64,000 nucleotides of DNA from Rozella allomycis CSF55 (taxonomy: Eukaryota): positions 1 to 64,000 of the forward strand of contig KE560384.1 of assembly GCA_000442015.1 (NCBI GenBank). Reading direction: 5' to 3'. The notes under the pieces were generated by a model. That model was given only the letters and a program-made list of their open reading frames with translations. It did not search any database and had not been told where the DNA came from. The translations under genes and the position numbers were made by a program. Below, in pieces: positions 2,242 through 61,915 of this stretch. Numbering within the stretch: the stretch's first letter is position 1; each line of letters starts with the position of its first letter.

Positions 2242-2483
2242 NAATAGAGTTCTTGCACCAATAATCGAGCACTGGTGTGGGACTCAACGATACAATATCG
2301 GTTACCAGTTACTGAAAGTCTCGAAAGGGTTACATAAGCGCAATAGTAAAGGTTTTGCACTCTTATAGTTCAAACAGATATTTACCGATGAGTTTGGCTC
2401 AACATTAAATTGATAAAACGAATATTTTCTGGCCTTATGTCGGTATGTATTATATAATATCGGTTCATTATTATTTATTTCGN

Positions 2484-2758
2484 TTGTGTAATTTTAGAGA
2501 CCGTTGGCAACTTCAAAATACCGTCAACCACATTTTCTTCATATAATCTGGTCTTTGCAAACGAGTATGCAACTGAACTTGGTTCTCGAAAGAAAAACCT
2601 TTCATCCCGAGGTTTTTTCGAAGCACTTACAATGGCATTGCAAATTTCTTGTTTTTTTAAGTGTTCAGCACTTAAAAACTGATGATAATCACCGATTTTC
2701 ACGGACAAAATGTTTTTTGGAAAAAATGACGACATTCCTCAAATGTTTTGGATTTCAA
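2484..2758 (-). mobile_element. 5' part of another copy of LINE ORF1 (N-terminus MSSFFPK...)
   Basis: 2494-2579 is nearly identical to 2156-2241 and supplies an ATG at 2735; bounded by Ns at 2483 and 2759. Confidence 0.75.
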
Positions 2759-4744: not shown

Positions 4745-7573
4745 TTATGATTTATTTAGGTTGGAATAAACTTCTTGAATAGATGAAATTAAATGGAGAT
4801 ATTCTCTCTTTCTGGGATTTTCTTTTGAGCAAACAATGTCATTGTAAATCAAATTGATCATGTTGGTAAAATCACCCAAGCTGAAATATTTGCAATTAGA
4901 CTTTGTGAAAGCTATTATTTCTTCTGGAAACAATGAGAATAACGAATAAAAAGATTTAGCTTTTTCAATCTGAGAAACAGGGCAATGAATAAATCGATTA
5001 AGGGAATGCGTTAAAGCGTTTAAATTTTTCATCATTTTTTCTACGCCATAAAAATTCATTCTTTTGATGCAAACAATGTTGTTGATAAAAATTGTTGCAA
5101 TTAACGAATCGAGATCGGTATGAATGAATCTATAATTAAAACCTCGACTACTTACTTTATTTCGTCATTTTCAAGACAAGAATAAATTGATTCCTGAAAA
5201 TTTTCAACGGATTTTATTAAATGTTTAATGTTTATGTCAGGTTCCGAAGCAGGCTCGTCAAGATGATAACTCCCTTGCTTAAATGATAAATCACAAAAAT
5301 ATAGAATGTGACATTTCAATTCAAATTTTAAAGTGCATAAATATTTTGATGAAATGTTTTCAGTCCTTTTGATGGATTCCTGCAAATTTCTATATCAAGT
5401 TTAGGACATTTCTTACTCTGAAATTGGAAGTTTTAAATTTATTGAATCTTCGCTATTTATTGGATCTAAAAACGTCGGCGAAGCCAAAGTTAAACATTTC
5501 TGAAATTGATTCGCGATCCAATTTAGATTTTTGTATAAATGTGCAATGAATTTTAGTTTATTGTAATCTGTCAATATTTCACTTTTATGAAGAGTTCTAT
5601 TTCCTTTATTCTGAAACAAAAATTGATTTTCGTCATCTTGATTATTATAAAGGCTGGCTAAATTCCCGCTAAAGACAATGAAGACCTCATTTCCATCTTC
5701 AGTGTTAACAGTCAAATCATGAGATACAATGCCTTTAAACATCAATTGAATAAAATTTTGGTACTTTTGTATTTATCAATAAAAGATTCAACAAGATTCT
5801 CAATCGCATTACAAATCAATGCTGTGGCAGAGTCTTTCAGAACGTCTACTTGACATATGAGACCATTCAAGCGATGTATTATTTTCAAAAACGGTAAAAT
5901 ACACTAGAAAACGCATTAAAATGAAAATACGTTGAAAAATGGCGGAGAATCAACTTTAACGAGAAATGCATCAGACCCTTGTAAAATTGCATTCAATTCA
6001 TGATTCATTGATTCTGTCAAAAATGGGCAATATGAATCCAAAACAATTTCATCTAAAAATGTTTCTAATTTATTAAAATCGTCCCCATCATCCTCGCTTT
6101 GAATTAGATGTGATGAGTCTGCTTACATTACAATAATCATGTGGATTGAGAGAATAAACTTTTTGATGAGTGAATAAACAATTGGAATATTATTGAATTT
6201 AGCAATAATTCTGTTTTCTAATTTATTTACGTTTGATTTTCTATCAAAATCAATTTGTTTAATAGAAAAGAAAGTCTTTAACAATTATTATAAAGTTTTA
6301 CTTTTTTGGTCCTACATGAATTGCCTTTGATAATCTTTTCTTCTAAACGATTGAAAACATTCGTAGAATCATCAACCACCTCACAATCTTTTTGTGCTAA
6401 AAATAACCCCAAAAAATATATTATCAATTAAAATTAAATTGCATCATTTACTTGATCTTGTATATTGATCCAAACATATGATATGGTCGTCATTGGATTG
6501 TCTACCTTGCATCCAATAAATTCAACAACGATTTTCAGATTTTGAATGATCATCTGAAACTTTGTAAACACAGAAGTAAAGAAATTGAACAAGTTTGAAG
6601 TACTTTCATCTCCCTCACTTTGTAAATTTCCCACTTTATTGAACCCCTTTGAAATCATCGATTCCGTAAAGTTCTTCAAGGTAACATTAAAGAAATCGTT
6701 CATTTTCTATTTATTATACAAATTTATAATACTCGATCAAGATCATTACTCTTATCCAAGATGCTGAAACATTCAAGCAAACATAACAAATATCCTCTAC
6801 ATTTCTCATCTACATTTCTTTATTAATCTCTCTTATAAAATACCCGTCGCATTCTGGTATCTTTTCTCCTAGAACGCTCATGTTTAATTCTGTGGTTAAT
6901 TCTTCAAAAATTGTCTTTGTTTAAGTATCACTTTTATTACATATCCCAGACTGTTCATATTATCCTTTAATGTTTTTAAAATATCCAGTGTTTTATATTC
7001 TTCGTCATTCAATTCTTTTATTCCTTTTTGATACAAGTTAACGGCCACCAGAAAGTCCCTCTTACTTAATTCATTCCTTATTCGATCAGGGAATTTATTT
7101 AATCGTTCTCTATCTCAACCATCACACAAACTTACATTTTCTCTAATATTGAAAGAATTTGATTGTTTTGTAATGATTTTTGCCACATTGAATACAAATT
7201 CTCATATGAATTTCGAGTCAAACATATTTTTCCCTGATTTAATTGAAGCCTTACTCGGTCTAAATTGCTCAAACATTCATTCATTCTGTCAATAACAACC
7301 TATCACGATTAGGATTAATTCGTACAGAATATGACTGGATAGAATTGTGAAATCCAAAATGATACTCATTAACAATAATATCCATAACATCCTCCATTCT
7401 CTCATACATCTCTTGGATCTCCCTAGCTCTGGATTGTTGAGGATTCAATAACATATCAATAGCTAAAGGTATAGGGTTATACTCTTTATGAAAAATAAAA
7501 GTCTTACATTATCTGCCAGCAACGGCTTAAAGTTCTTTTCCACCAAAGAAAACACTTGGTCCACAAAGTCCAT
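4745..7573 (-). CDS. SEC8: Exocyst subunit Sec8/EXOC4 (multi-exon)
   Basis: Spliced motifs YNPIPLA, IVNEYHFGFHNSIQSYS, ILEKIERLNKFPDRI, VWINIQDQ and C-terminal KRMNFYGVEKMMKNLNAL resemble Sec8; about 12 introns of 26-32 nt. Confidence 0.8.
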
Positions 7574-7648: not shown

Positions 7649-8392
7649 TTAATATCTGCGTCTGTCTCTAGACCTTGACCTTCTTCTACTCTCAGTCCTT
7701 TTAGAATCACGAGGAGAAACTGAACGCCTCCTATCCCTCCTTGAATCCTTGAAAACTGTATCCTCAGCCTTTTCGTCACTCTTTTTCTTTGTTTTGTCAC
7801 TTTTCTCCCGTTTTCGAGACTTTTTAGGTATTAAGTCTTCTTCTTTAATCAATGCATAGCCTTGGTCCCCTTTAGCAGAGAAGCACTCATTAGACAAATG
7901 ACCCTCTCCTCCACATCTCTGACATTTGGTATTATAAATCGCATCTGCTTTTGACGCTTGATCTTTGGAGTCTGATATTTTAGGTTTTTGTCGTCGTCTC
8001 TCTAATTCTAGTCCAACGTTGTTTGGATCCAAATCAGTACCATCCCCTTTTTTCTTTGCTTCTTATATATTTTACCCTGCTGTATATGTTTTATTGACAA
8101 AGAAACCCTCTTTCCTTCTATCTTGTATATAGATTTTGAGTAGTTATTACGCTTATGATTTTACAAAACATTGTATCGCCAAGAGATAAAACATCCTCCA
8201 CTTTTTCAATTTTATATCTCGATATTTGTGATAGCGGCAAGATGCCTGGAATATTCGAACAAATTTTCCTACCTTTAATTTTAAATCCGAGGATTTCAAC
8301 TAACGCACAATTGTCTTGAATGTCAACCACCTTTAATTAAGTTGTTACTTCATTACTTTTCCCCTATATACTCTGTAAAGCTTTAACGACAT
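7649..8392 (-). CDS. ZCCHC17: S1-domain/CCHC nucleolar protein pNO40 (ZCCHC17-like)
   Basis: S1 domain, DLDPNNV motif, CQRCGGEGHLSNEC knuckle, K/R/S-rich tail; 4 short introns. Confidence 0.85.
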
Positions 8393-12202: not shown

Positions 12203-13954
12203 ATGAGTACTGTAGAATTTGAAAGCCAGTTAAAAGAAGCCCTTTCACGCAACCCCCATGATTTTAGTGCATGGGAGCAGTTATTGCAAGTGAACGAGAC
12301 CAAAGTAGCGAAAGCGTTAGCTGAAGCGCCTAGAACAAAGATGACGATAGATACTATGCCAGAGTCACTTAGAAGAGCGATTCAAGGAACACAAAAAACA
12401 TATGATGAATTTCTGGGAAGATTTCCGTATTGCTTTGGATATTGGAAAAAGTATGCCGAGTTTGAGATGGTACACGAGGGAGATGTGAAGGCGAGAGAGG
12501 TAAAAGTATTTTTTTAAAAATAAATCAGGTGTATGAGAGAGGGGTTGGAGCGTTTCCGAACAGTGTTGATTTGTGGATTCAATACTGTACGTTTGTGACC
12601 AAGATAACGAAGAATCCAACTGAGGTGAGGGGGTTGTATGAAAGGGGAGTTGAGTGTATTGGATTAGATTTTATGGCGCATTCATTTTATGATATATATT
12701 TGGAGTGGGAGGAGAATCGTGCGATTGAGCAAAACAGTTATTCGAGGACGTTGTCGTTGTTGGATAGACTGATAAGGATTCCGATGCAGCAATACCAACG
12801 ATATTATGAAAGATATCAACAGATAGCGAATGTGAGAAACGCGAGGGAAATGGTGTCAGCGGAGGAGTATCAAGTGTTGAGAAAGAGGGTTATTGGAGAG
12901 ATGAAGACGAGACAAGTGAAGAACATAGTAAATAGAATGTGAAATGGTTATGAATAGAGAGATGATGCTGTGGATTCAGAAATCAAACAAATTGTGTTGA
13001 ATGACAGAGCAGGGGTATTTTCTATTACAGAAGAAAAAGTAAAGAAGAGATGGCAATTTGAAGAAAACATTAAGAGGCCATATTTCCACGTGAAGCCATT
13101 AGATGAAGGGCAGATCATCAATTGGAATAAATATTTAGATTTTGAAGAGAGCGAAGGAGACGCCGTGAGAATAATTTCATTGTATGAAAGATGTTTGATT
13201 TCTTGTGCGTTTTATGAAGAATTTTGGATTCGCTATTCCAAATATTTGATCTTGATTCAAGATTATGAAAGAGCAGAAAATGTTTTCATTAGATCTGTCT
13301 ATACTTTTATTCCAGAATCTCAACCAAAATGTTTAATTAGTTTTGTCTATTTCAAAGAAAGTCAAGGTACCATGTGGCATAGTTATTTAATCTAGGTACC
13401 ATGTGGCTGAGTGATCTAATCTAGGTAAAATAAATGAAGCGAGAGAATTATTGAATTATTATTTACAAAAAAGACCAGGGCAGTTGCAAGTATTAATTGA
13501 ATATGCCAACTTTGAAAAGAGGAATAAATCTTTTCAAGATGGATTGAAGTTTATTTCCAGTTGGTTGGAAAGCGTTGATGAAGTTTCAAAGCCTTTTCTT
13601 TACTCCTTCTTGGCCAAAAATATTTGGATTTACAATAAAGAAATTAACAAAGCAAGAGAAATGTTCATTAAAGGAATCCAAGAAACAACCGATAAATTTT
13701 TACTCTTTCAATACATTCAATTTGAAATCACAAATAACAATCTAGAGTCAAAAGAAAATGTTTTGAATATTTTTAATTTAATCAAAGATTATTCTTTTCC
13801 AATTCACATCAAAAAACAAGTCGTTGAGAAAATTTGTGATTTTTTAATAGATTGTGGCTGTGCAATGAAAGAGTAAGAAATTTCATGTTCTATTTTTAGA
13901 ATTTCTGATTTCGAAATTTCCAGTTTGAAAGAAATTCTAAATTTCAAAAATTAA
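12203..13954 (+). CDS. PRP39: U1 snRNP HAT-repeat protein Prp39
   Basis: FPYCFGYWKKYA, IGLDFMAH, IKRPYFHVKPLD and LYERCLISCA motifs. Confidence 0.93.
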
Positions 13955-15882: not shown

Positions 15883-18309
15883 TTATAAAGTAATATTAAC
15901 ATCTCTAATTTCATTCACGATAGAACTGGCTTTGCGGTAGACTTCAAGCATAGTCTTGCACTTTGCTCTTTCTTTGGCTATCAATTCATCTTCTTGCAAA
16001 AGTTCATTAAAAAAGTCTTCCTTATAAAGCTCTTGAACAAGCTGATTTTGAAGCATCTCTTTGCTATAATTTACTAGAAAATGCATTATTGCTTTTGGTA
16101 CAGAATCTTGAAGGTTTTTGCGCACGACGTTAAAGTATGATTCAATAAGAGATTCTATGTTTGATTTAAAGAAAAAAGGTACTGATAAGTTGAGTTTCTA
16201 CTTGCTCCTTTTCAGACATGTTGCTTGTGTCTTCTAACACAGATGGGGGCTTATGTAACGGATTAGTCATTCTTACTTGTTCTAACTCTAAATTGGAAAG
16301 AGTCATATCCATCAATTCATCGTCTAAAACTCGAGTTTCTTTTTTCACTGGCGCCATAGCCCGAACAGGTGAAGACATTCGTTTATTCTTTATATGCTCT
16401 TCTTGATTATGATTCACACCAAATAAATAATGTAAAAATCCACCTTCTTGGCCTTTATTGATTCTTCTTCTTGCCTCTGCTGTAACTGGAAGGCCAATTG
16501 ACCCTGGTAATTGCGTTGAATTTGTAAATTGCGGGTCAGTGTTTTCATCAGCAACAATTCTTTCTTTAGTGGGCTGATTTGTCAAAAATAATGTATCTAC
16601 CTTTTTCTCTAGAGTCTCAGTTCTCTTGCTTTCGTGCATTTTTCCCAAAGCTTGTATTGCAGCTGCGGCACCCATAAAGTCTGGATGGTTTGTATTAATG
16701 TACGCAAGCTCAATTCTAACCAAATTTTCAATCATCGAACTGGTCTCATTTAATCTATTTTTAACCAGTTCGCTAGAAGCATCAATGACCTTTTTGTGCA
16801 AATTCGGAAACCTAAATAATTCCTATGTGGAGATAAAAATTGAATTTACCATTGATTCACTTTGGTGAAGAATTTTAATCAGTTCATCGTAAACAAGCTC
16901 CATACAGCGCATTCCTGGATATTCTAATCGTTCAATTTGCCTCTTCACGAGAATCTCAAATGATATTTCAGGCACGAATAGGCATGACCTAGGACCCTAA
17001 ATTCAGTCATTTTTTTATTAATACAGTTGAATTACGAATAACAGTTCTGATATCGTTTATACTTAATCCTCCACAAGGGTCAATATTGTATAACGCGTTT
17101 CTGTAAATTTCGTTAAAAATGAAATTAATGCGCGCGCCGCCACACCTTTTGAATTAGTTAAATAATCTTTACAACTCGCTTGTTGAAATGTTTTTGGAAG
17201 TTCCATCCACAGCGTCACAAAAGTCATTTGAGAATTTTGTTATCAATCTCAAAAGCAATGTACCCTATTCTTTCTTTTAATGCATCATTACTCTATGGGC
17301 ATTCCCTTGGAAGTTGGGGTCGCCATAGCCCATTAATTCATGTTGTGTGCTTACTACAAGACTATTTATCTTATTCTTCAATTCAGGCAACCGATCTCTG
17401 ATATGTGCAACCAATATTTGATTTAAAGATCTCGCCAAATAAGCCGAGCCACACCGATGAGCGATACCTCTGTATTGCGGATGATGTCGAAAAAATTCTA
17501 ATTCTTTTTGCATAGCGTCTATCACATTTTTTTGTTCATTTATATCTTTTTGACTTCTATTAACAACCCCGATGAATCCCAATTTCAACTTAAAAGGACC
17601 TTTATTGCACAAAATATCATGGGCACTTGTCCCCTGGTCCATTAAATCCAATTTGGTTAAAACACCAATCGTTCTTAATCCTTGTGGATCAACTTCCCGC
17701 GCAAATTTTAAAGACTCTGAATTGACAATATCTATATTAGCAGGTGTCACAGCCAGTAGAATCGAATTAGGGCGCGAAGAATATTCATAAATCATTTCTC
17801 TGATTTGTTGCTCAATGTCATCAGGCTGATCTCCGACTGGAATCTTATTATTCAATATTTTAATTTTTTACTTTTGTTATTCCTGGGAGATCTACCAGAG
17901 TTAAATTCAACACTTTTGTGGAATAAATCTTTAAATGTATAGGAGTCTTTGATATTCCTTTATTATTACCCGCAATTCTCTGTGTTTCCTTTTCAATTTC
18001 TTTTCTTATTTCATTAAAATCCGTGTATATTAATTCTGGGCTGTGTAAGAAGACGCCCCATTCTTCAACTCCTGCCATATTAATAGCATTTTGATATGAT
18101 TCGTTTATGAGCTGCAACACTAGAGGTCTCCTAGTAACTATATCGTTGCCTCTTGGAAGAAAATCCCTTTGGACAAGGGACTCCAAAACGGAAGACTTGC
18201 CACTACTTTGAGAACCTACAACTACGATTTGGGGAAGATCAATAGGGTCGTGGGAAATAACATTAAAAACATCTTGCAACTTGTTTACAATAGGTATTAA
18301 ACTTTCCAT
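15883..18309 (-). CDS. DNM1: Dynamin-related mitochondrial fission GTPase Dnm1/Drp1
   Basis: [38 protein letters not shown] and a C-terminal GED; 6 introns of 27-28 nt. Confidence 0.9.
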
Positions 18310-22148: not shown

Positions 22149-23627
22149 TCAAAACGATTTATTACTATTTTTTCGTGACATGAAATCGCGTTGACTTGGC
22201 CATGGATGATACGACCCTTTTATTCAAAATTTAGTGAATTACCAAGGTAGCTTTCGCCATCCCCTGCGCGCTCATGTTTAATCGGACCATCTAGATATAC
22301 CAAGTCAAATCCACCAACTTTAGGCCTTTCTTTCTTGTCGTACAAAGGGAATCTATAAATAAAATCAAAGTTGCCTACTTCTTTTCCATGTCGATTATGT
22401 CGAAACAATCATTCAGAACCTGATGCTTCAGTTCATAATCCATTTGTGTTTCGGCACTAAAAGAAGGGGACGCATTTACTTCCAGCAACCATCTTTACTA
22501 GACACTAATTCAAATTTACGGGTTCAAAGTATTGTCAATCAACACATCGTATCCGTACAATTCGAAACAATGTTTGTCTTGTATCATAACTTTTTGAACA
22601 CATAATAATGATCTAATTATCATTGCCTCTATTTTTCCAAACAAAGATTTGCACTCTTTTTCGCCGTGCTTTGTCATTATAAACATTTTCAGGTTTCGCA
22701 AGAGCCATTTGCATCCTCTTTCCCCATCGTAATTCGGTGCCGTCTTTTGGACTGCAACATTTGTGGCATGTATATACAAATTCGATAAATCTTTTGCGTC
22801 TGATGAGTAGGTAGAGTTTGAAAACCGGCAAAATCCATTTCGATGTATGTAAACCGTCAATGGTGAGTAAGACGTGACCAAAACATAAATTCTCAAGTCG
22901 AATTTTTTCCCTCCGATCAAATATGGATTGTCTATGTATTTTTGCACAATATAAGCTTCCGGCTCTATTCTTTCATTTGCAGAATTTGTCTTTGGGTCTT
23001 TCCTCCATTGGCTGATTTGACTGAGTTTATTAATTAAGAAAATCCCTTTTCCCTGCGCTTTTCCTACCGGTAAATTTGCATCATTAAAACTTTACTGGTT
23101 TCATGATCCACAATGACCCAGGATTTCTTTTAAATTCTTCTTGAAACATTGCATGCTCTTGAGGCAAGACGAAACTCGTTGAAATAAATTCGAATCTAAA
23201 ATCCTTATAAAGTATTAATACTTGGACGCTTCTTGTCTTCCAAACTCTCTTTCTATATACCGTACCATCCTTTTGACATTCTTTACAAGGAAATCCTTTC
23301 TTGTAAGCTGTTCTTTACAGTATATAGGAATTTACCTCGTAATGATTTCGGAAGTGGTTTATTCTTTGATGATCCAACAAATGTATTGTGTCGAAGACTT
23401 CATGGACCCAGAAAACATCAGCCCAGTGAAAATCCCAATCTGTTTCATATTGACCCGTACTTATCAACAATATTTGTTATCTATTACGTGGAAACGTCTT
23501 TCCAACCTCTATCTTTCATAACGTCGTATATAGTATTGTTCATGTGTGTTCTAAAACGAATTACACTGAAAACTATTAAATATCAAAGTTACGGACTCTT
23601 TTCTTCATCTTTGGCATTGGCGAACAT
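22149..23627 (-). CDS. TTLL9: Tubulin polyglutamylase TTLL9-like
   Basis: NHFRNHYELTRK, WIMKP..QGKGIF, KFDLRIYVLVTSY, FELYGYDV and WLLEVNASPS motifs. Confidence 0.85.
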
Positions 23628-23671: not shown

Positions 23672-25291
23672 TTATCGGACCAATGTAAATCCTTCTGGCT
23701 TTGTTATTTTCTTTTTTTCCCTAAATTCTTGAATCCATAATGAGAGTCGTGTTTTCGCGGCCACTGATTCTTTTGGAATTAATGGCAAATATTCCTTTTC
23801 TATGTACGCAATAATCTTTGGGAATTGATTAGGAAAATGCTTAAAAAATTGGAAGCCAGCAATCTTGAAAAAGGTAAAAAGAACAACTTACGTTTAAGAA
23901 ACTTAACAACAACACTGGAGATATCCTTCGAGGCTTACTATTGAGCATCCTAGCAAGCCAAGCCCAAGCACGTTCAATTCCAATAGGACGATTACCTTTT
24001 CAAAACTATTTTCAAAATTACCTTTAAAATCATGCTGCAATATAGCAGCATAAAGAGCAATGACTCCAGACATCCGTTCTTGGTAACTTTCTTCCGATTC
24101 AAAAGCACCGTCTTTCTTTACATAACCAACTAAAAGTCTAAAGTCATCAATGCTCATATTTTTTAGTTTTTTGTGATATATTGGAATTATGTAAGGACAG
24201 CATCGATAAAGGCAAGCGGCAATAATGTTTATAATATTTTCGTGTTGCTTGTAAAGCAAATGAACAACTATGGCGGTAGGGAATGCTGACGCAGGATTTA
24301 TAGCGATTTGAAACGTGGCTTGTTCGGTAATTTTCTCACCAAGTATAAAGAGAGCGTATTGATACAAATTTTCGCCTTTAGATTTTGCATTATTAAGTGT
24401 TTTTTGCAAATCGTTGACAACTGATTGAACTTGTGTGGCAATCGAAGATATTTGCCCTACCTTTGTGTTCAATTGAATTTTTATTTCACTTTTAAAATTT
24501 TTATCTGTTTGATCATCTCTAATTTGTATCATTTTATTATAAATCGCTTCCAAATCATTTATTTCCCCTTGTATAGTTTCTGAAATTTCGGTTTCCGGGA
24601 TTGGGATTACCGCTCTTTGCTTTTCTTCTTCCATTTTAGTTCTTTCCATTTTAATTCTTTCCATTTTCTCTTGTTTTAATTTATTTTCAAGCATAATCTT
24701 CTGTTGTCGCTCCTGTTCTTGTTCTTGCTCCTTCATTAGCAATTCCTTTTCCACTCTGTCTTTTTCCAACTTTATTCGAGCTTCTTCTTGACGAGAGAGC
24801 TCCTCTAATCTCTTCTTTTCATCTTCGATTCTTTTTCTTTCTTGAATTTCCTTTTCTCGCTGCAGATTCTCTCGTCTCTTTTCGTCCAGAAATTTGTTCT
24901 TCAAATCTTTAACTGCCAGAGACATGTCTCTGAATTGATCAAAAAAGTTGTTAAAATTATCTTTTTTCTTCAATTCAACAGAGGAATGATTTTCACGTTC
25001 TTCTGGATTAATTCTGTGCAGATTCGTAAATACTTCGGCCTTTTCTTTGCTTTTTAATGCAACTTCTTTAATCAAACTTATATGCGATTTTATTTCTTTC
25101 GTTTTTTTAATTTGTTTTGACTTGATAATGTCAAAAGCACATTCTTCGTCTGTTTCCTGATGATCCGAATCTGTGCTATCGTCGAATGTCTCGGGTGCAG
25201 AAAATTTTATTGTTTTTGTTTGTAAAGAAGAATTTGATGTGTATTTCTTTCGTGGTGAGACTAGACTTTTAGGAATACTATCCGACTCCAT
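23672..25291 (-). CDS. GLE1: mRNA export factor Gle1
   Basis: Coiled coil followed by CPYIIP, YQERMSGVIALYAAI and AWAWLARMLN; ends KPEGF. Confidence 0.88.
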
Positions 25292-39338: not shown

Positions 39339-42300
39339 TTATTTGTCTACCTTTTCCTTTGAATTATTTTCGTTTTGATTTTCCAAGTCTTTATCATAGC
39401 CCAACAACCAATACGTTCTCATTGAACCTTTTCCCTGATTGCAAATAAAAGAGACTGTTACTTTCACTTGAATTTCACCTCTATATTCAGTTTTGAAACC
39501 GCTTAGTTTTTGAAGGGCATTGTAGGCGGACTCGCTGAGTTGAATTTTCATTGCTTCCGACGTACTCTCCATTCTAGATGCAACATTGATAGTGTCACCA
39601 AATAAGCAATATCTAATGATTGTAGGATTAAATAAGCATACCTTGGTAATTTTAATCCGACAACACCAGTGACACATGGACCTTTAATGTGCTTGAATAT
39701 TCATATGTTACCTAGTCGATGGTGATTACTTTATTAATTTACCTGTGTTGATACCAATTCTTATCTGTAGTTTGAAATCTGGTTTATGTGGCACTGTGAA
39801 ATTTTTGGCTTCTTCCAATAAATGAAGGGCCATTTTTGCGATTTCACCGACATGTTTAATTCCATTCCGTCTAGGCAAACCAGAAGCGACCATGTAGCTA
39901 TCACCTTTGATAAAACATATTGAAAGAATACCTATGTGAAGGATTAAAAATGGTTACCTATTGTTTCTACTTTATAAACGTCATATTGACCAATAATTTT
40001 ATCAAACATTGAATATAATTTATTCAAGAATTCAACTATTTGATTTGGAGTGCTTGAAGATGTCAAATCAGAATAGCCCACAACATCAGAAAAGTAGATT
40101 GTACATTCGTCAAACGATTCTGGCGGAACTGGGATTCCTAATTTGACTTTGATTTTTTAAAAAACCTTTTTGAAGATTTGAAGCAATTTGAGGCGGTAAA
40201 ATTTCTTGTAATAAATTCTTTGCATTTTTCTGGGCTGTAGCCAAAGCGCTAGCCACACCTTATGTTAAGAAATGAATAATGGGAAACCTTGATAATTTTA
40301 TTTTAACTATTTTACCTTTAATTTGAGTTTCTTTCATTATTCGAATTTCTTCTTCTCTCGCTTTGCTTTCTTCTTCTTCTGTTAAATCTCTAATGACCCC
40401 TGTAAAAATATGAAAATCTTCTTCCAAAACTTCAGTGACGGATAAACTAATAGGAAATTCATCTCCATTCTTTTTTCTCCCTGTTACTGTTCTTCCAATG
40501 CCAATAACTTTCTTAATCCCAGTATTTAAGTAATTTGACAGATAAGTGTCGTGATTTGTTGCGAATCTTTCTGGCATCAACATTTTAATGTTTTCTCCAA
40601 CAACTTCTTTTGCTGAATAGCCAAACATATTCTCTGCTGCTTGATTGAATCTTAAAATGATGCCATTCTTTCCAATGCTAACAATTCCATCCAAAACTGT
40701 ATTCAAAACTGAACTCAAAATTCTTCTTTCAACATGCATCTTCTTTTCTGACTCTCTAATAATCAAATTGGATTGTTTTTCTCTTTCCTGCATTGCTATA
40801 ATCTCCTCAATCTCTTTTCTATGATTGCTTCTAACAGTCTTCAAGTAATTTGATTGTTCTTCATCCAAAATTAATAATCTCTCGTTATGGTTTTGCTTCA
40901 TTTGATTGTATTCCTGTAAATGAATCATTTTTGAATCACCTAAATTCATTTCCTTCCTCTTTACCAACGCTTTGTGATTATTAATCATTTCTTCCAATTG
41001 CTTTTCCAATGATTGAATGTGCGAATCATTTTCTACTCCAAATTTATTATCAATTTCCAATTCTTCATTAAATGCCATCGATATCTCGGAATCATTGTCT
41101 GAAATATCTCCTGTAGACCCTTGTGATTGCAACCCCTGTGATTTGGATTTCGATTTGATCGATCTGTTTCTTGTATTATTATTCTTTTTAAAATCTCTCA
41201 TCTCTTCAAATTCATCCTCCTTTTCTTCATTCTCTTCAATCTCCTCCTCTAAGTCAACTTTACTCTTCATTAGCCATTTCTTTCCCCTCATTGACGCTTG
41301 AAGTAAATGTTCTCTTTGGAGTTGTTTCAACTGCATCTTTTGATTTCCCCTCAGTTTTTTCAAGTCATTCGCTTGCTCTGTCTTTATTTTCACCATCTTT
41401 ATTGTTTCCCTCAGGTTTTCAATCTTTTCTTTACTAGCACTAATCTCTGCCTTTTCATTCAACTCAATCTCTACAAAAGAAGAAGCTTGACTAAGCCCCA
41501 GAGATTGCAATTCTTCATAAAACTCTTCTTCTTTTTCTATTCGCTCTTTTCTTTGTCGCATTTCAATAATCTGAATCTCTCTCAATTGTTCACTCTTCTT
41601 TTTATTAATCACCTTCAAGTTATTCATTCTAAACTGGAAATCTTTCATCTTGTCCATCTGCTCATATTCCATCAAATGCTTAGATTCCAATTCATGAAAA
41701 ACTTGCTCATCTCTCATCAATCTCTCTTGCTCTTCTTGCAACTGCCTTTGCTCCCTGATATGTCTCTCCTCCATCTGAACAACTAAAGCTTCATTTGCTA
41801 ATCTCCTCATATCAACACTCTTCTTCAAATTTTCAGCAGCCATCCTACTCGCCTCCTGCTGATGAATCAACATGGCGCGACTCTTTGTCTCCTTGTACAT
41901 CTGCTTCTGAAGCCGCTTTGTGTTCCGCCTATTCTGACGCTCCTGCAATACTCTCAAATGATTCTGCTTCTTATGTTCCATCTCCTCTCTATGCCCCGCC
42001 TTCATCACACTCACCTCCTCCTCGCATCGTCTCTTGAAATACACATCTTCCTCTTTTCTATTTCATAAATTTTAAAAATTTTACCTGCTTAACTCAATCT
42101 CTGCCCTCTTGATCTCATTCTCCACCTCAATAGCATTTCTTCGTAATTCACCAATAATTTGATCAATCATGCACTGTTGTTTCTCTCGAAACATACGAGT
42201 TGCTTCCTCATTTGATAAAACATTCCCTTTATGACCAACTACTATGGGTTCAAATGTAGATGATCTGCTGGGCCGGTCGTTTGCTTGGACTCCTAGTTGG

Positions 42301-42401
42301 TCTATTGATTGTAAAATCTCTGACACTGACAATGATCTACTCAATTTTAATTGAGCTAGATCATTGGTACACTCTTTACTGGCTTTTCTACTGCTCTCCA
42401 T
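39339..42401 (-). CDS. Coiled-coil + PAS + class III guanylate cyclase
   Basis: After splicing: [39 protein letters not shown] and [21 protein letters not shown] domain at about 40390-40700. Confidence 0.92.
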
Positions 42402-42537
42402 TTCTTATTTCAATAATACAATTGTGCTTGGTTACAACAGAAAACAAATACGGTAACACTTTGACGACTTATAATATTCAACCAAAAATACATTGTAAAA
42501 GCTTAAATAAACAATGTAAGTGATAAAAGTCAATAAT

Positions 42538-43800
42538 TTAAACAGACTTTATTTGAGATATTTCACGAAATAATTCTTCCTCTTGTAATAGATGTATCAA
42601 TTGATTATGTCTAGTCAACATGAGCAATATTCCTTCGTAGCTTTGTTCCATAATTATTGGCGATAACACTTTTAGAATAGCTATCCTAATCAAAGGTCAC
42701 TTTTACCTATGCAGACTTTCAACAAAAAATCTTCGCCAAAATATATAAAGTTATCAAAAACTCTAAGATGCGTTTCATGATCGAGAATGGGAACGAACAA
42801 AGTCATCAACCATTGAATGGAAAAGTCATGCATTTCAACACATTCCCTTTTTAAATGAACATACAAGTTATATTCTTCATTAAACAAAATTTGTTCTAAT
42901 TGCTGTATGTATGGATTTATCTGTTATTATATTGATTAAATGGAATTTACCTTTTCCATTTGTAATGAATATAGAGACTTCAACAATGGGCATTCAATTA
43001 AATTTGCAAATTGTACAAAAGCAATCTCCTCTTGCAAATGTATTATTAGCGGATAAAGCACATAAGTCATTCCTTGAATCTACAACACACAAAAAGGAAA
43101 ATTACATATCCTTTTGAAGGCCTGAAAAACACATATGCCTCCAAAACCCTTTCAATTCTCTTCCGTCTTGTTCTTAGAACCGGACACCTGTCAATATCCA
43201 TTCCTATTAATTTCACAGTGTTCTCTTTGCCGATGGCAAATGGCTTTGCTGACATTAAGAATAGATTTGCTCTCTGCCGATATGTCGCAAAAACGGACAC
43301 TGTCAAGTGCAGATTGTTAGGTATCAGTTTTTGATATATTAAAGATCTGAAAATTCCCGGTATACCCTGAAAAAATGCCTCCTCCATTGAATATTGGTCT
43401 GATGTTTCCCTCTATTAATCTCACATCAATCTTACCCTTTTTGTAGATCAGGAATTATTCTTTTTCTCCATAATGTTGTTCGTGAATCTTTTAGGGACGA
43501 GTCTCTAGAATACGCTGAATCAGTTGTCGGAGTAGGCGATGGTGGGTATATGGCCGTTTCTATTTATAAAATTAAAGCTTTTTACCTGCAATCGACGTAT
43601 TATCACTTTTATGCTGAGAGTAGTAACTCGAATTTCTTCTTATATTTCTTTATTGATGTAATTAATTACGTTTTGTTAAGAAAAAGCAATTTTATTGGTT
43701 CTTATTATTTAGAAAAGAATATTGTACCCCAAAAACATACGTTAGAATATTTTTTAGTCGACGGCTCTCTCCTGGTTGGTTTCAGACAACCGGTGTTCAT
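42538..43800 (-). CDS. Second TBC-domain Rab GAP with intact catalytic fingers
   Basis: GIPGIFRSLIY, IGMDIDR (R finger), GYIQGM (Q finger) and LRVFD motifs. Confidence 0.8.
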
Positions 43801-53897: not shown

Positions 53898-55601
53898 TTA
53901 AAGTTTTGATACATGATAAAAGTCGGCTTCAGTGACACCAAGACCCATTGAAGATGTATTGACAATACCACCAGAAGCAGCTTTAATACAATCGTCATAA
54001 TAGTTTGCCCCAGACCAAGCTTGATGTGTTAAAGTTTCAATTTTATATTCTCTCTCCTTTCTTTGGATATCCTGAACATAAGCTAACATTCCCTTTGTTG
54101 AATAGTCTTTTGCAAATTTGTCAATTATCAATGAATTCGCATGAAATCCAGCCAAAGTGATAAACTGCCAAACATACCCAAGCTTGGCAAGATTGGGAAT
54201 GAACGATTGAATGTCTTCGTCGCTCAAACCAGCCTTGTCCCAATTAAATGAAGGCGACAAATTATATGCGAGGAATTTATTTGGAAATACTTTTTTAACT
54301 TGATCTGCAAATTGTTTTGCTTGATGGTAGTCTGGTTTGGCACTTTCCATCCAAAGCACATCACAATATGGCGCAAAAGCAATAGCCCTTGCAATGCAAT
54401 ATTCGGTACCACATTTCACTCTGTAAAGCCCTAAATTTACAAATTAATATCTAAGGTACCTTCAATAGTTCTTGGAGAGTCCCAGCACCAATAAACATCA
54501 ATTCCAAGAGATTTCGCAAACTCTCTGGCTTCATTGTGACTCATGCTCTTTGTTTTCTCATACCAATCGTGAATATCGTTTTCATTCGATCCACGAGTAT
54601 TTAAATGCGTTGCAACCAAGTCTCGATATAATATCAATCTTGCATCTTTTAACCATTTAGTTTGAAGATGTTCCAGTTCAATAGTACTCAAACCTTTCTG
54701 TAACCCCGCGAATAAAACATCAGCTAAAGGCTTCAAATCTGGATTTGAACTCCCAAGAATAAATGGATGATCTCTTTTATCAATATTGCTTTGTAGCAGG
54801 TTGGCAGCCTCAGCGTCAGTTCTAGCAATTAAAATAGTTTCAACTCCCATAACATCCATCTGAAGCCGCATAGCTTGCAATCTGTTAATATGTTCTTGCA
54901 TTGTAACAAGAACCTTTCCTACGTCCAATAAAGCAAGCGTAAGTACCTGCTAAATGCCCACATTTTTTGTATGATGAAAGCTGATCTTCCACATGAATTC
55001 CGGCTGCACCACTCTCCACAAACATCTTGGTTAACTTCATGTTTGCCGTTCTCCCACCGTGCCCTGTATCAGCGTCAGCAATAATTGGGGCCAAGTAGTC
55101 AACATAGTTATCAAACACCCTATCCGATTTTACATCTTTTGCTCTTTTTATTAATTCATGCATTTGCTTCTTATCATGAAAAACTTGAGCAGAAAATAAT
55201 TGATGTACCTTTAATGGTACAGTGTTCATGGGATAGTCCGCTAAATCTGGCCCGGGCTCATTAGAACTCGATGCAGTAGACGAACATTGCCAGCCTGAAA
55301 CGTAAATAGTATCAAGGTATTTCGCCTTTGAGTTTTTCGGCTAAAATATTACCATTTGCACAACTTGAATCGGATCAAGAGCCCCAAATGTAACAGAAGC
55401 CGTCCTGTTTCTTTGATGTTTTCTCAGCAAGTCCCAAAGTTTCTTGGCTTGGTCATTGGATACATACGATTGCCTAAGACTTCCTCGTAATGAAACAACT
55501 TGGTCGGCAGTATATGTTCTAAAGACATCCTTGAATCTTTCAGTCATCCACCATTTATTGACCCTTTCTACTTCTTGCTCAAATGATACTTGCAATTTCA
55601 T
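53898..55601 (-). CDS. ICL1: Isocitrate lyase with C-terminal SKL
   Basis: [27 protein letters not shown] and [10 protein letters not shown] motifs; 3 introns. Confidence 0.93.
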
Positions 55602-57410: not shown

Positions 57411-58250
57411 ATGACTGTCTCTCACGAGTAAAACAATTAAAGTTGACTGTTTAGATCATCAATTATTGTTTTAACCAATACAAGCCGTTTCAGTAAGCTC
57501 TCTTCGGCCACTGGTTCTTTCCCTGAAACTGGTTTTGATGTAAGAGAGCTTGCATATGGTAAGAAAACTCTTTCTTAAAGGCCTAGTCTGGCAGTTACAT
57601 AAAATGGGTAAGTGTAAAGCAACATTTGCAACTCCAAATGGTGGTGAAGCGCCAATGGACCCACGTTCAAAGAAGGACTCTGAAAGTGATTCTGTAGTGA
57701 AAGAATTCCTTAATGACAATGAACCTTTGAGAATGTTAAAGAATACCGTAAAATTAGACCAAGTCGATTCATCAAAAGTCAAATTGGTCATTCTCATCGG
57801 AGGTAAAACGTGTCCGGTTTTTTTTAATAGGTCACGGTGCACTCTTTGACTTTCCAAAGAGCACACCACTCAGCCAATTATTGTCAAGAGTCTATTTTAA
57901 AAATCAGGGAATCATTGCAGCCATTTCTCAAGGAGTCATTGGTCTGATAAACCTTAAAGATGAAAGCGGCAGCCCATACCTAAAAGGAAAGAGAATAACA
58001 TGTAGTGCTGACGAGGAAGAACGTCGATTCCGTAAAATACTTTGTATGTTGTAACTTAGGTGAGGAACTTCCATTTACTGTTCAAGACAAACTTCAAGAA
58101 ATGGGTGCCAAAGTAGAGACTCAACAGGCATTTCAACCAAATGTTTTGGTAACTGAAGAGCGACTTATTACCGCTCAAAATTCTCAAAGTTCAATGAGGT
58201 TTGCTCAAATCATCAAGGAAACTTGGGAAAAGTTCCATCGTGAAGAATAA
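57411..58250 (+). CDS. DJ-1/PfpI (Hsp31-like) family protein
   Basis: TGFDVREL, ATPNGGEAPMDPRS, GGHGALFD and RLITAQN motifs. Confidence 0.85.
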
Positions 58251-59552: not shown

Positions 59553-60901
59553 ATGAGATCCAAAAAGAGTATAACATCTTCATTCTTCTTGTTGTTCATT
59601 TTAATTCTTGTTGTTTATTTTTCATTGAGAACAAACTCCAATGAAACTGTAAAAATATTTCTTCATAAAAATAGTTTACAGATCGACTTGTATTAAATCA
59701 GGAGAATAAGACGAAGATAGGAGAAAATAACAAAGAAAAGAATATAAAAGCTAGTTTTGTTGAAACATTTCTAAAGTTTCCCTTGAATGAAACCAAAGTA
59801 GCGTTTGCTGAGAATAATCCAACAAAGATCGACGAATTCACAACAGATATGATAAAATTACTTGTTGAATTTGACGTAAAAGAGCCGCTAGTGAAGATTA
59901 ATGAAGAATGTTTGCCACCACCCCTGGAAGAAGTTAATTGTGGAGAATACCCTGGCGTGTTTTCAGGGAAGAGAGAACGACCAGCTAAAATAGCACATTT
60001 AATACAATTTGGATTTGATGTCGATACATTAGAAATAGCGCTGCATCAATATTACGATCATGTCGATTTTGTTTTTCTGTTAGAATCAATAAAGACTCAC
60101 TATCATCAATTAAATAAACCTTTGGTGTGGGAAAAGGTGAAACATTCCGAACGATTTTCTAAATTTAAACACAAAGTCGTACATTTTGTTGTTGATGAGG
60201 CGTTGATTGGCAAGATGAAAGAAGAAAAGAAGGGGGATTGGTTCTTGGAAGAGTTGCAAGAAGAATATCGATGGAAAAAGTTTCTGCAGTGGAATGAAAT
60301 TACAAAATACTTCAACGATGACGACATTATTGGATTTGGCGATACAGATGAAATCCCCAGCAGAAAGAATTTGAATTTATTGAAATTTTGCAAATTAAAA
60401 GTTCCCAGGGTTGATGTTGGGATTTGGTTTCCAATGGGCAAAGTGGATCAAGCATTCAAACCTGACTGGCCTGTATCGTGGAGTCACCCCTACACTTTAG
60501 GCGATCCCACTTATTACTCACTTGGCGCTGCAAAGGCCTTCAATGAAAATAATAAAATACCTACAAGATCAAGAGGCAGGAGTGGAGCCTTCATCTTGGG
60601 TGGGATGCACATGTCGCACGATGGTTATTTGCCTTTTCAAATGCTAAAAAGATTATCTTGTACAGAATGTGGAATTAACATTAACGATTTCGAACATTGG
60701 TACGACATGCTAAGCAAGGGGAAATTACACGAGTTAGAATTTGAATTGGCAAAAGAATACCCTGGAAATGAAAAGAGAATAGTCCCTTTATCTTCTTTAA
60801 ATGATCAAAATCGTAAAGCAGTTTCAATTCCATGGTTCTATGAATGCAACAAACAGAGATTTCCTCAATGGGAAAGAAAGCACGACACTCGATTAGATTA
60901 A
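59553..60901 (+). CDS. Glycosyltransferase family 17-like (MGAT3-like) type II membrane protein
   Basis: TM exon, then a 26-nt intron; DTLEIAL...VDFVFLLES..TH....KPL and DDIIGFGDTDEIP motifs. Confidence 0.8.
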
Positions 60902-60947: not shown

Positions 60948-61915
60948 TTATTTCATGTTAATTTTTTGACATGTTAAAACTAACGCTCTCAGACTGGAAG
61001 ATATTGACATGTTGCCGTATAGCGTAGATTTTCCAATTATCTCCACTCCTTGTAATAGTTCTTCATACGGCAAGGTTACATTAATTTCATAACTATCAAT
61101 AAAAAGATTAGTGCATTCTTTCCATTGATCGAAACTCATGTCTTTGTCTATAAAATATTGCGGAATCCATTCAGTATCACCAGAATGAGACAACAGTTCT
61201 TGCCAATTTGCATGATTGGAAAGAGTCTTGGAATTTACAAAATCAATAATTTCTTTTCTTAAGAAAGCTACACAATGTGCATACGAATTTATGACACTAG
61301 ATGCCTGTATATCAATGCAAAGTTGATCCAGCTTTCTTTCCTGTAGCTGTATATTAATGCCAAGTTGATCCAACTTTGATCTTCAGTTTTTTTTTCGTGT
61401 TTGCCTTTTATCTCTTCAATTTCCTTTTTAAACTCCTCAAACTCTTCTCTTTCTATAAGTTTTCCCGAGGTACCCTTTTTCTCCTTTGCATGTNTTCCCG
61501 AGGTACCCTTTTTCCCCTTTGCATGTCTTTGCTTTTTCGAAAGCTCTTCTACTTTCTCTTGCGCTATCAAAGCATCTCTGGCATTCACCTGCCCTGCTTC
61601 TAACTGTTCACGGATAGGTGTAATTGGCATTAGGTTATGGTCAATAGGCGAATATTCTATGGAGGCGGTATGCTTACTGAGCTTCTTGGCCCGCATTATC
61701 CAGTCCTTTATTTTCGTACTTTCATCGACATTAGGATATAGTCTTGCATTCAGCAGGGTGTCTCTCAAGCCATAAGATTCTACCATCTTCTCTCTAGCAA
61801 GTCTAATATCATCCCTATACAGCATTTCACCAACAGTGGCGTTTTCGTCAACCGAAAAAGTTACTGTTCTTTCGGCCTCTGTCAAAAGAATTCTAATCTC
61901 GATGTTCTCAGACAT
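60948..61915 (-). pseudogene. Ubiquitin-like N-terminus plus coiled coil protein (possibly Crinkler-like) with an apparent frameshift
   Basis: Two overlapping ORFs switch frame near 61375 with no intron; N at 61494. Confidence 0.4.

Follow-up and report, generated by a model that had tools for sequence, protein, structure and literature searches.

The window analysed here is a 64,000-nucleotide stretch of Rozella allomycis CSF55 (contig KE560384.1 of assembly GCA_000442015.1, positions 1–64,000). Its minus strand carries a gene for a class III (guanylate) cyclase, in which the KVETIGD motif of the cyclase domain is interrupted by 53 nucleotides (nt) that divide into two abutting GT...AG units. 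The gene was defined by the gene model, Pfam matches and protein identity:

39339–42401, minus strand: host gene, encoding a coiled coil, a PAS domain and a class III (guanylate) cyclase domain.

Besides the cyclase domain, the protein has a PAS domain (PAS_9, E=3e-13) and a long coiled coil. Its PAS region is 100% identical to an R. allomycis CSF55 protein, in a cluster that contains RKP17683.1 and EPZ36949.1; these two come from two assemblies, and 2 of their 1010 residues differ. Rozella belongs to the rozellomycotan fungi, and the closest PAS-cyclase relatives in the protein search were chytrid proteins; a second Rozella cyclase was not found among 89 protein matches, in which this gene's own protein was the only one from Rozella. 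The gene model has 10 mini-intron units, four of them single and six arranged as three pairs. Successive exons cover positions 2–57, 59–108 and 123–182 of the Pfam PF00211 profile, with a 14-residue exon filling 109–122.

At the interrupted motif, the minus strand reads ...GAA ACA ATA G in the cyclase frame, then the 53 nt, then GT GAT AGC TAC ATG..., which places the interruption in phase 1 within a GGT glycine codon. The residue that follows is the Asp of the motif, which we take to be metal-binding from what is known of class III cyclases. In the order of transcription, the features at this site are:

39958–40137, minus strand: upstream exon, first part of the cyclase domain, ending ...KVETI plus the first base of the Gly codon (Pfam PF00211).
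39957–39932, minus strand: mini-intron unit 1, GTAACCATTTTTAATCCTTCACATAG, 26 nt, GTAACC...CATAG (from the sequence).
39931–39905, minus strand: mini-intron unit 2, GTATTCTTTCAATATGTTTTATCAAAG, 27 nt, GTATTC...CAAAG (from the sequence).
39743–39904, minus strand: downstream exon, the last two bases of the Gly codon, then DSYMVASG... (Pfam PF00211).

The first-pass annotation had proposed a twin intron of 26 + 27 nt at this position, and a check against the sequence bore out both its coordinates and its letters. Each unit is a complete GT...AG, and the two abut at AG|GT (...CATAG|GTATTC..., 39932|39931). The upstream exon (39959–40135) matches positions 2–57 of the Guanylate_cyc profile PF00211 with E=9.7e-16, and the downstream exon (39744–39902) matches positions 59–108 with E=7.2e-10. 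Since the split glycine alone bridges the gap from profile position 57 to 59, the mRNA must lack the whole 53 nt. The two public models of the protein (RKP17683.1, EPZ36949.1) read KVETIGDSYM here, that is, with the 53 nt removed, and two homologues, P0013 with KVETIGDAYM and P0014 with KVETIGDSYM, have no insert either. Removing both units does restore the cyclase motif, as had been claimed, and the site is harmless to the protein. The label "twin intron" did not survive, as the units lie end to end and neither is nested in a splice signal of the other. Because each has its own complete GT...AG and the units abut, they belong to the class of tandem introns around a zero-length exon.

Both units begin with GTA, and they end with TAG (unit 1) and AAG (unit 2). 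Against the extended donor consensus GTAA.T, the GTAACC of unit 1 fits at +4 and misses at +6, while the GTATTC of unit 2 misses both. Ranked with the window's own splice profile among 75 modelled single introns, a comparison set that was itself selected with the same profile, unit 1 has a donor at the 17th and an acceptor at the 43rd percentile, and unit 2 has a donor at the 1.3rd and an acceptor at the 39th. The sole AG within reach of the donor of unit 1 ends at +26. Unit 2 has a length divisible by three and no in-frame stop, and its retention would lengthen the motif by nine residues between G and D, as read from the frame. The exon sequence is ...ATAG| before the pair and |GTGAT after it, giving an AGGT microhomology on both sides. 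No RNA secondary structure stood out over the 53 nt (z=+0.93; 174 of 200 shuffles folded equally well or better).

There are three further abutting pairs in the window, two of them in the same cyclase gene:

39742–39712 (31 nt) and 39711–39682 (30 nt), minus strand: second pair, same cyclase gene, phase 1 in a GGT codon.
40315–40288 (28 nt) and 40287–40259 (29 nt), minus strand: third pair, same cyclase gene, phase 1 in a GGT codon.
13367–13424 (29 + 29 nt), plus strand: fourth pair, in a PRP39-like gene, phase 1 in a GGT codon.

All four pairs are thus in phase 1 of GGT codons. The 61-nt pair at 39742–39682 is confirmed by the cyclase profile, which runs to 108, continues through the 14-residue exon and resumes at 123; the gene finder called it as a chain, and the public models read INTGPCVTG across it. 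For the 57-nt pair at 40315–40259, keeping one or both units leads to a stop or a frameshift, as read from the sequence, and the next exon confirms the pair by its match to the end of the HNOBA profile and by its position in chytrid homologues. The PRP39 pair is flanked by positions 1–106 of the HAT_PRP39_C profile before it and 109–139 after it, though the second match alone is weak (E=0.014).

The gene with the PRP39 pair (12203–13954, plus strand) has HAT_PRP39_N and HAT_PRP39_C domains; PRP39 is a splicing factor of the U1 small nuclear ribonucleoprotein.

The PRP39 pair is plainly a recent tandem duplicate. The two units are identical at 25 of 29 bases, Tandem Repeats Finder (TRF) reports a period of 29 with 2.2 copies and 88% matches, and the interior similarity exceeds that of all 2775 pairs of unrelated introns. 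As four positions differ between them, the copies are not a collapsed or duplicated read artefact. In the three cyclase pairs the halves are alike only at a random level (34%, 96% and 46% of random pairs do equally well), and these pairs, if they are duplicates, would be old.

Intron lengths in the window are quantised. The census covers this one 64-kb window and includes the 75 single introns modelled by a gene finder with a splice profile and a length prior, with abutting units permitted. Nearly all of these (73 of 75) are 26–30 nt long, and the remaining two are 21 and 22 nt. The floor is sharp at 26 nt – 20 of the 75 have exactly this length, and just two are shorter. Because the length prior of the gene finder favours introns of 26–30 nt, two checks free of the prior were run. 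In the first, 25 pairs of adjacent long open reading frames (ORFs) were bridged using the splice profile and a coding score only. The best intron was 22–30 nt in 17 pairs, 58 nt in one and at least 75 nt in seven, and in none of the 25 was it 31–57 nt. The 58-nt solution is the PRP39 pair, and the seven solutions of at least 75 nt are separate genes or skipped small exons. In the second check, continuity of Pfam profiles supported 11 of 11 single introns at 27–29 nt:

PRP39_N, profile 67 to 71: one intron.
Isocitrate lyase (ICL), profile 74 to 75, 197 to 199 and 356 to 358: three introns.
RIO1, profile 136 to 138: one intron.
Dynamin_N, profile 113 to 115: one intron.
Dynamin_M, profile 105 to 112, 138 to 141, 180 to 181 and 227 to 231: four introns.
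39641–39613, minus strand: one intron in the cyclase domain.

The only established intron spans of 32–99 nt in the window are those of 53, 57, 58 and 61 nt, and all four are divided by an AG|GT near the middle into units of 26–31 nt. No chains of three abutting units were present in the window; two matches to such a pattern run into a homology-supported exon.

The modelled introns share a reduced set of signals: GTA opens 72 of the 75, A stands at +4 in 63 and T at +6 in 41, and the final AG is preceded by T or A in 63. Their G+C content is 26%, and that of unit 2 (39931–39905) is 22%. Phases are spread over the three classes (30, 22 and 23 introns). In 76 of 79 single introns – the 75 modelled and four found by hand, part of them chosen with the length prior – splicing uses as its 3' site the first AG that lies 25 nt or more beyond the donor, and nearer AGs are passed over. 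This suggests that the 3' site is chosen by its distance from the donor.

Several longer candidates were set aside. A gene finder with a flat length prior produced, along with a cluster at 21–30 nt, many "introns" of 70–300 nt, most of which split into mini-introns plus small exons or into separate genes when the splice profile and length prior or Pfam were applied. A 55-nt single intron at 6451–6397 is inconsistent in frame with the neighbouring candidate exon and was not counted. The flat-prior run gave three more candidates of 53–60 nt. That at 54440–54388 was rejected, as the continuity of the isocitrate lyase profile from 356 to 358 favours a 29-nt solution. The other two, 59649–59701 and 34672–34613, stay candidates, with in-frame alternatives of 26 and 30 nt.

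The central position of AG|GT in the four double-length spans is far beyond chance. For each span, the inner letters were shuffled, or replaced by random letters of intron composition, in 200,000 trials each, and a trial was counted as a success if an AGGT divided the span into two parts of 21–31 nt. A suitable AGGT arose in 0.24–2.3% of trials per span; for the 53-nt span the rates were 0.39% (shuffles) and 2.3% (random letters of intron composition). The joint probability for four of four spans is 6e-10 to 2e-8. The division into two units proposed by the first-pass annotation fits this genome far better than chance, given the normal unit lengths, the AG|GT junction and the three further pairs, one of which is a visible tandem duplicate. 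The exon context is distinctive as well: an exon AG upstream and GT downstream frame four of four pairs versus 3 of 75 single introns (Fisher p=2.3e-5). Taken separately, AG precedes 23 of the single introns and GT follows 9.

The three single introns that have both are at 12500–12528 (plus strand), 57803–57830 (plus strand) and 23996–24021 (minus strand). By the slippage model described below, these would be primed for duplication or for exact loss.

The best explanation for the 53 nt, which we consider fairly probable, is that they comprise two autonomous spliceosomal mini-introns with a zero-length exon between them, which would have arisen by intron duplication and would be removed singly. 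The starting point would be a single intron of about 27 nt in the exon context AG|GT...AG|GT. Through slippage or unequal exchange at the paired AGGT microhomologies it would be duplicated in tandem, after which the copies would diverge; the reverse of this event would be the exact deletion of one unit. That the ancestral single intron was flanked by a direct repeat of AGGT is indicated by the exon AG upstream and GT downstream of all four pairs. For the 53-nt pair, as its halves have no residual similarity, an origin by duplication is put forward from the AG|GT context and by analogy with the PRP39 pair. Selection on the internal sites can be argued, because AG|GT persists while the halves have diverged to background. 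The lengths point the same way. The doubles of 53, 57, 58 and 61 nt have not shrunk into the empty zone of 32–52 nt, and each unit lies within the range of single introns. Nothing would prevent such shrinkage if they were single introns, each with some 27 bases to spare.

Removal would begin with the pairing of the outer donor with the internal AG, so that unit 1 leaves first. Joining of the exon ...ATAG to GTATTC would recreate a 5' splice site with the same context at -3 to -1 (TAG), and unit 2 would then be excised as an ordinary 27-nt intron, giving KVETIGD. The opposite order could also be followed, each unit being complete, and the product would still be KVETIGD. Counted from the outer donors, AG dinucleotides end at +26 and +53 in the 53-nt span, at +9, +28 and +57 in the 57-nt span, at +14, +31, +51 and +61 in the 61-nt span, and at +16, +29, +45 and +58 in the 58-nt span. 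In four of four doubles, the 25-nt rule seen in the single introns selects the internal AG, and from the internal donor it goes on to select the distal AG. Because the rule picks the internal AG every time, two ordinary splicing events are the default expectation, and two-step splicing of the 53 nt is predicted on this basis.

A number of observations weigh against this explanation. Use of the internal splice sites is a prediction from sequence, and two of the internal donors are weak. That of the 53-nt pair (GTATTCT) ranks at the 1.3rd percentile among the 75 modelled donors and at just the 34th among all GTs of the window, and that of the 57-nt pair (GTTTCCC) scores lower than any of the 75. 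In mitigation, a single intron of the same gene that is framed by homology (40165–40138) also begins with GTT. The similarity between the halves of the 53-nt pair is at the random level, with 34% of the 2775 random pairs scoring as high or higher. The census is small, with four doubles in one 64-kb window and three of them in one gene, and it comes in part from a gene finder whose profile and length prior favour consensus introns of 26–30 nt. Four modelled "introns" of 106–195 nt remain undivided into mini-introns and exons, and may conceal small exons or mis-joined genes or be real long introns:

6276–6451, minus strand: long modelled "intron" (gene finder).
8059–8164, minus strand: long modelled "intron" (gene finder).
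23398–23592, minus strand: long modelled "intron" (gene finder).
61253–61374, minus strand: long modelled "intron" (gene finder).

Lastly, the public models of the cyclase gene take a 54-nt intron at 42084–42031 (minus strand), which, if right, would have double length but lack an AG|GT at its centre. A 27-nt option at the same donor (42084–42058) also keeps the frame. The extra 27 nt of the longer option are G-rich and read like the adjoining coiled coil, and the splice profile rates the 54-nt solution 7.1 units below the 27-nt one. We favour the 27-nt intron over the public one.

The weak internal donors, the one-window sample, the long introns left over and the case at 42084 make one-step removal a serious rival, though a less likely one. 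According to this alternative, the 53 nt are a single intron spliced by the outer GT (39957) and the outer AG (39905), and the internal AG|GT is an accident or an unused relic of an old duplication. Neither outer site is unusual (the donor, GTAACC, is at the 17th percentile and the acceptor at the 39th), the internal donor is at the 1.3rd, and both public models simply delete 53 nt; spliceosomes of other organisms with tiny introns also process longer ones. What one-step removal leaves unexplained is the AG|GT near the midpoint of four of four doubles despite halves that have diverged to random similarity, the absence of spans between 31 and 53 nt, and the preference for a distal AG, given that the first AG at least 25 nt away is used in 76 of 79 single introns.

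It is much less likely that the first 26 nt alone are intronic and that the next 27 nt are translated, always or as an isoform, adding nine residues between G and D (profile positions 58 and 59). The 27 nt are a multiple of three in an open frame and could be retained without a premature stop, and the gene finder with the length prior picked exactly this model; another stopless 27-nt intron of the gene (39461–39435) is kept by both public models. Yet the Pfam profile is continuous (57 to 59) only with the 27 nt removed, the homologues P0013 and P0014 have no insert, and the segment has the intron-like G+C content of 22% (26% in the modelled introns) and ends AAG|GT. An insert adjoining the presumed metal-binding Asp would also probably inactivate the enzyme. 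The 27 nt may still be kept in a minor isoform. Chance resemblance, an assembly artefact or a decaying pseudogene is very improbable, for although the window contains 15 N and the public models of the gene have errors, the frame and all cyclase profile segments are intact across the 10 intron units, the two assemblies agree save for 2 of 1010 residues, and chance is excluded at about 1e-8.

A broader proposal can also be made, which we regard as tentative and rather doubtful. The distance from donor to acceptor would be subject to an upper as well as a lower ruler (about 26–31 nt), so that introns would grow only in whole quanta, and the doubles would form a class that needs obligatory two-step splicing. 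Growth would then take place by intron duplication at AG|GT, and shrinkage by reverse slippage, which amounts to precise intron loss. The doubles would perhaps make up some 5% of intron sites.

Animal introns that are spliced recursively measure tens of kilobases. Recursive splicing at ratchet points or zero-length exons has been described for long introns of Drosophila and vertebrates, with two cases in S. pombe (bioRxiv 10.1101/226894; PMC8605326), and one of the S. pombe examples is an intron of 336 nt (bioRxiv 10.1101/226894). The Rozella pairs resemble these in that a 3' site lies directly against a 5' site (AG|GT) inside the removed span, and in that piecewise removal, predicted here from the order of the splice sites, would regenerate a 5' site and leave no trace in the mRNA. 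They differ in scale and apparent origin. The known cases subdivide long introns, whereas the Rozella span is 53 nt with pieces of minimal size, and the Rozella pairs seem to be products of intron duplication rather than of ratchet-site evolution. Recursive splicing is known for very long introns, and the same AG|GT architecture is found here at the minimal-intron extreme.

The pairs are also like the twintrons and stwintrons of fungi in that two spliceosomal introns form one intervening sequence in a fungal gene. A stwintron is defined by an internal intron that splits the donor, branch point or acceptor of the external one, which forces the order of removal (PMC8469720). The Rozella units, in contrast, are side by side, with the outer GT and the outer AG uninterrupted.

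Tandem genomic duplication is a named route of intron gain (PMC8469720, PMC13685798), and duplications of introns within the same gene have been reported in fungi (PMC3609843). As in that route, a duplication bounded by AGGT yields a functional GT...AG unit, and the PRP39 pair consists of near-identical copies in one gene. In the classical model of tandem duplication, exon sequence is duplicated and an intron arises at a new place. The Rozella pairs differ from this model in that a whole existing intron would have been duplicated in place, at the same position and with no exon between the copies. An in-place duplicate that abuts its parent intron would be a particular case of the known route of gain, and no description of it was found in the literature searched.

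Introns of similar size occur in other lineages, such as Paramecium, where they are about 25 nt. Those of myxobolid myxozoans and Dicyema are 22–27 nt (PMC13644364), and short introns of microsporidia have been described along with two introns of about 30 nt in Rozella S23 (PMC6349667). Rozella is like these genomes of ultra-short introns in having a narrow peak near 26–30 nt and reduced signals (GTA...AG). No report of abutting mini-introns, or of a second length peak at the double unit, was found for Rozella or for organisms with tiny introns, in a search that lay outside the original Rozella genome paper (James et al. 2013). The text searched of PMC13644364 does not mention tandem, twin, recursive or bimodal introns, and that of PMC5014332 does not mention tandem or recursive introns.

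Of specialist interest here are the quantised intron lengths, the fresh PRP39 duplicate and the AGGT-flanked pairs. Should the internal sites be in use, the introns of this lineage would be bounded in length from above and below. Intron number could then rise without any change to the mRNA, through in-place duplication at AGGT of the kind visible in PRP39, and Rozella would be a natural system for the study of how the spliceosome measures distance.

The public models of the cyclase gene are wrong in several places – they skip an exon, retain a 27-nt intron and fuse the gene with its neighbour. These errors are attributable to standard gene finders that are not tuned to introns of 26–30 nt, to stopless introns with a length divisible by three or to tandem pairs. 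The skipped exon (40258–40166, minus strand) is passed over through a 169-nt "intron". It matches the end of the HNOBA profile in Pfam (191–216, E=0.0066) and aligns by Smith-Waterman to chytrid homologues directly upstream of their cyclase domains. A BLASTP search with the 30-residue exon (40167–40256) against P0014 gave no match, and the exon was located by Smith-Waterman and Pfam HNOBA. The retained intron (39461–39435, minus strand) is a stopless, in-frame GT...AG unit of 27 nt towards the end of the cyclase domain. In both public models it is read as nine additional residues, which the homologues do not have, and Pfam aligns 70 residues of the exon that holds it to just 60 profile positions. 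Upstream, a TBC/RabGAP gene is fused to the cyclase gene in the public models by an intron of about 297 nt (42404–42700, minus strand). The 1010-residue public model is probably a chimera of the two genes.

Elsewhere in the window, a dynamin gene was split by the gene finder (at 16823–17291, minus strand). Three added mini-introns give a continuous Dynamin_M profile:

17291–17265, minus strand: dynamin mini-intron, 27 nt (Dynamin_M continuity).
17172–17146, minus strand: dynamin mini-intron, 27 nt (Dynamin_M continuity).
17024–16997, minus strand: dynamin mini-intron, 28 nt (Dynamin_M continuity).

Two repeats were also observed. A stretch of about 50 nt occurs almost unchanged at approximately 2146–2193 and 2480–2531 (minus strand), about 340 nt apart and with several N nearby; it comes from the candidate lists only. 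A tandem repeat with a period of 33 at 61461–61526 (2.0 copies, 94% matches) includes one N and is located inside an ORF of the minus strand. It was considered as a possible intronic repeat and rejected, as it appears to be coding, with a repeat of 11 residues.

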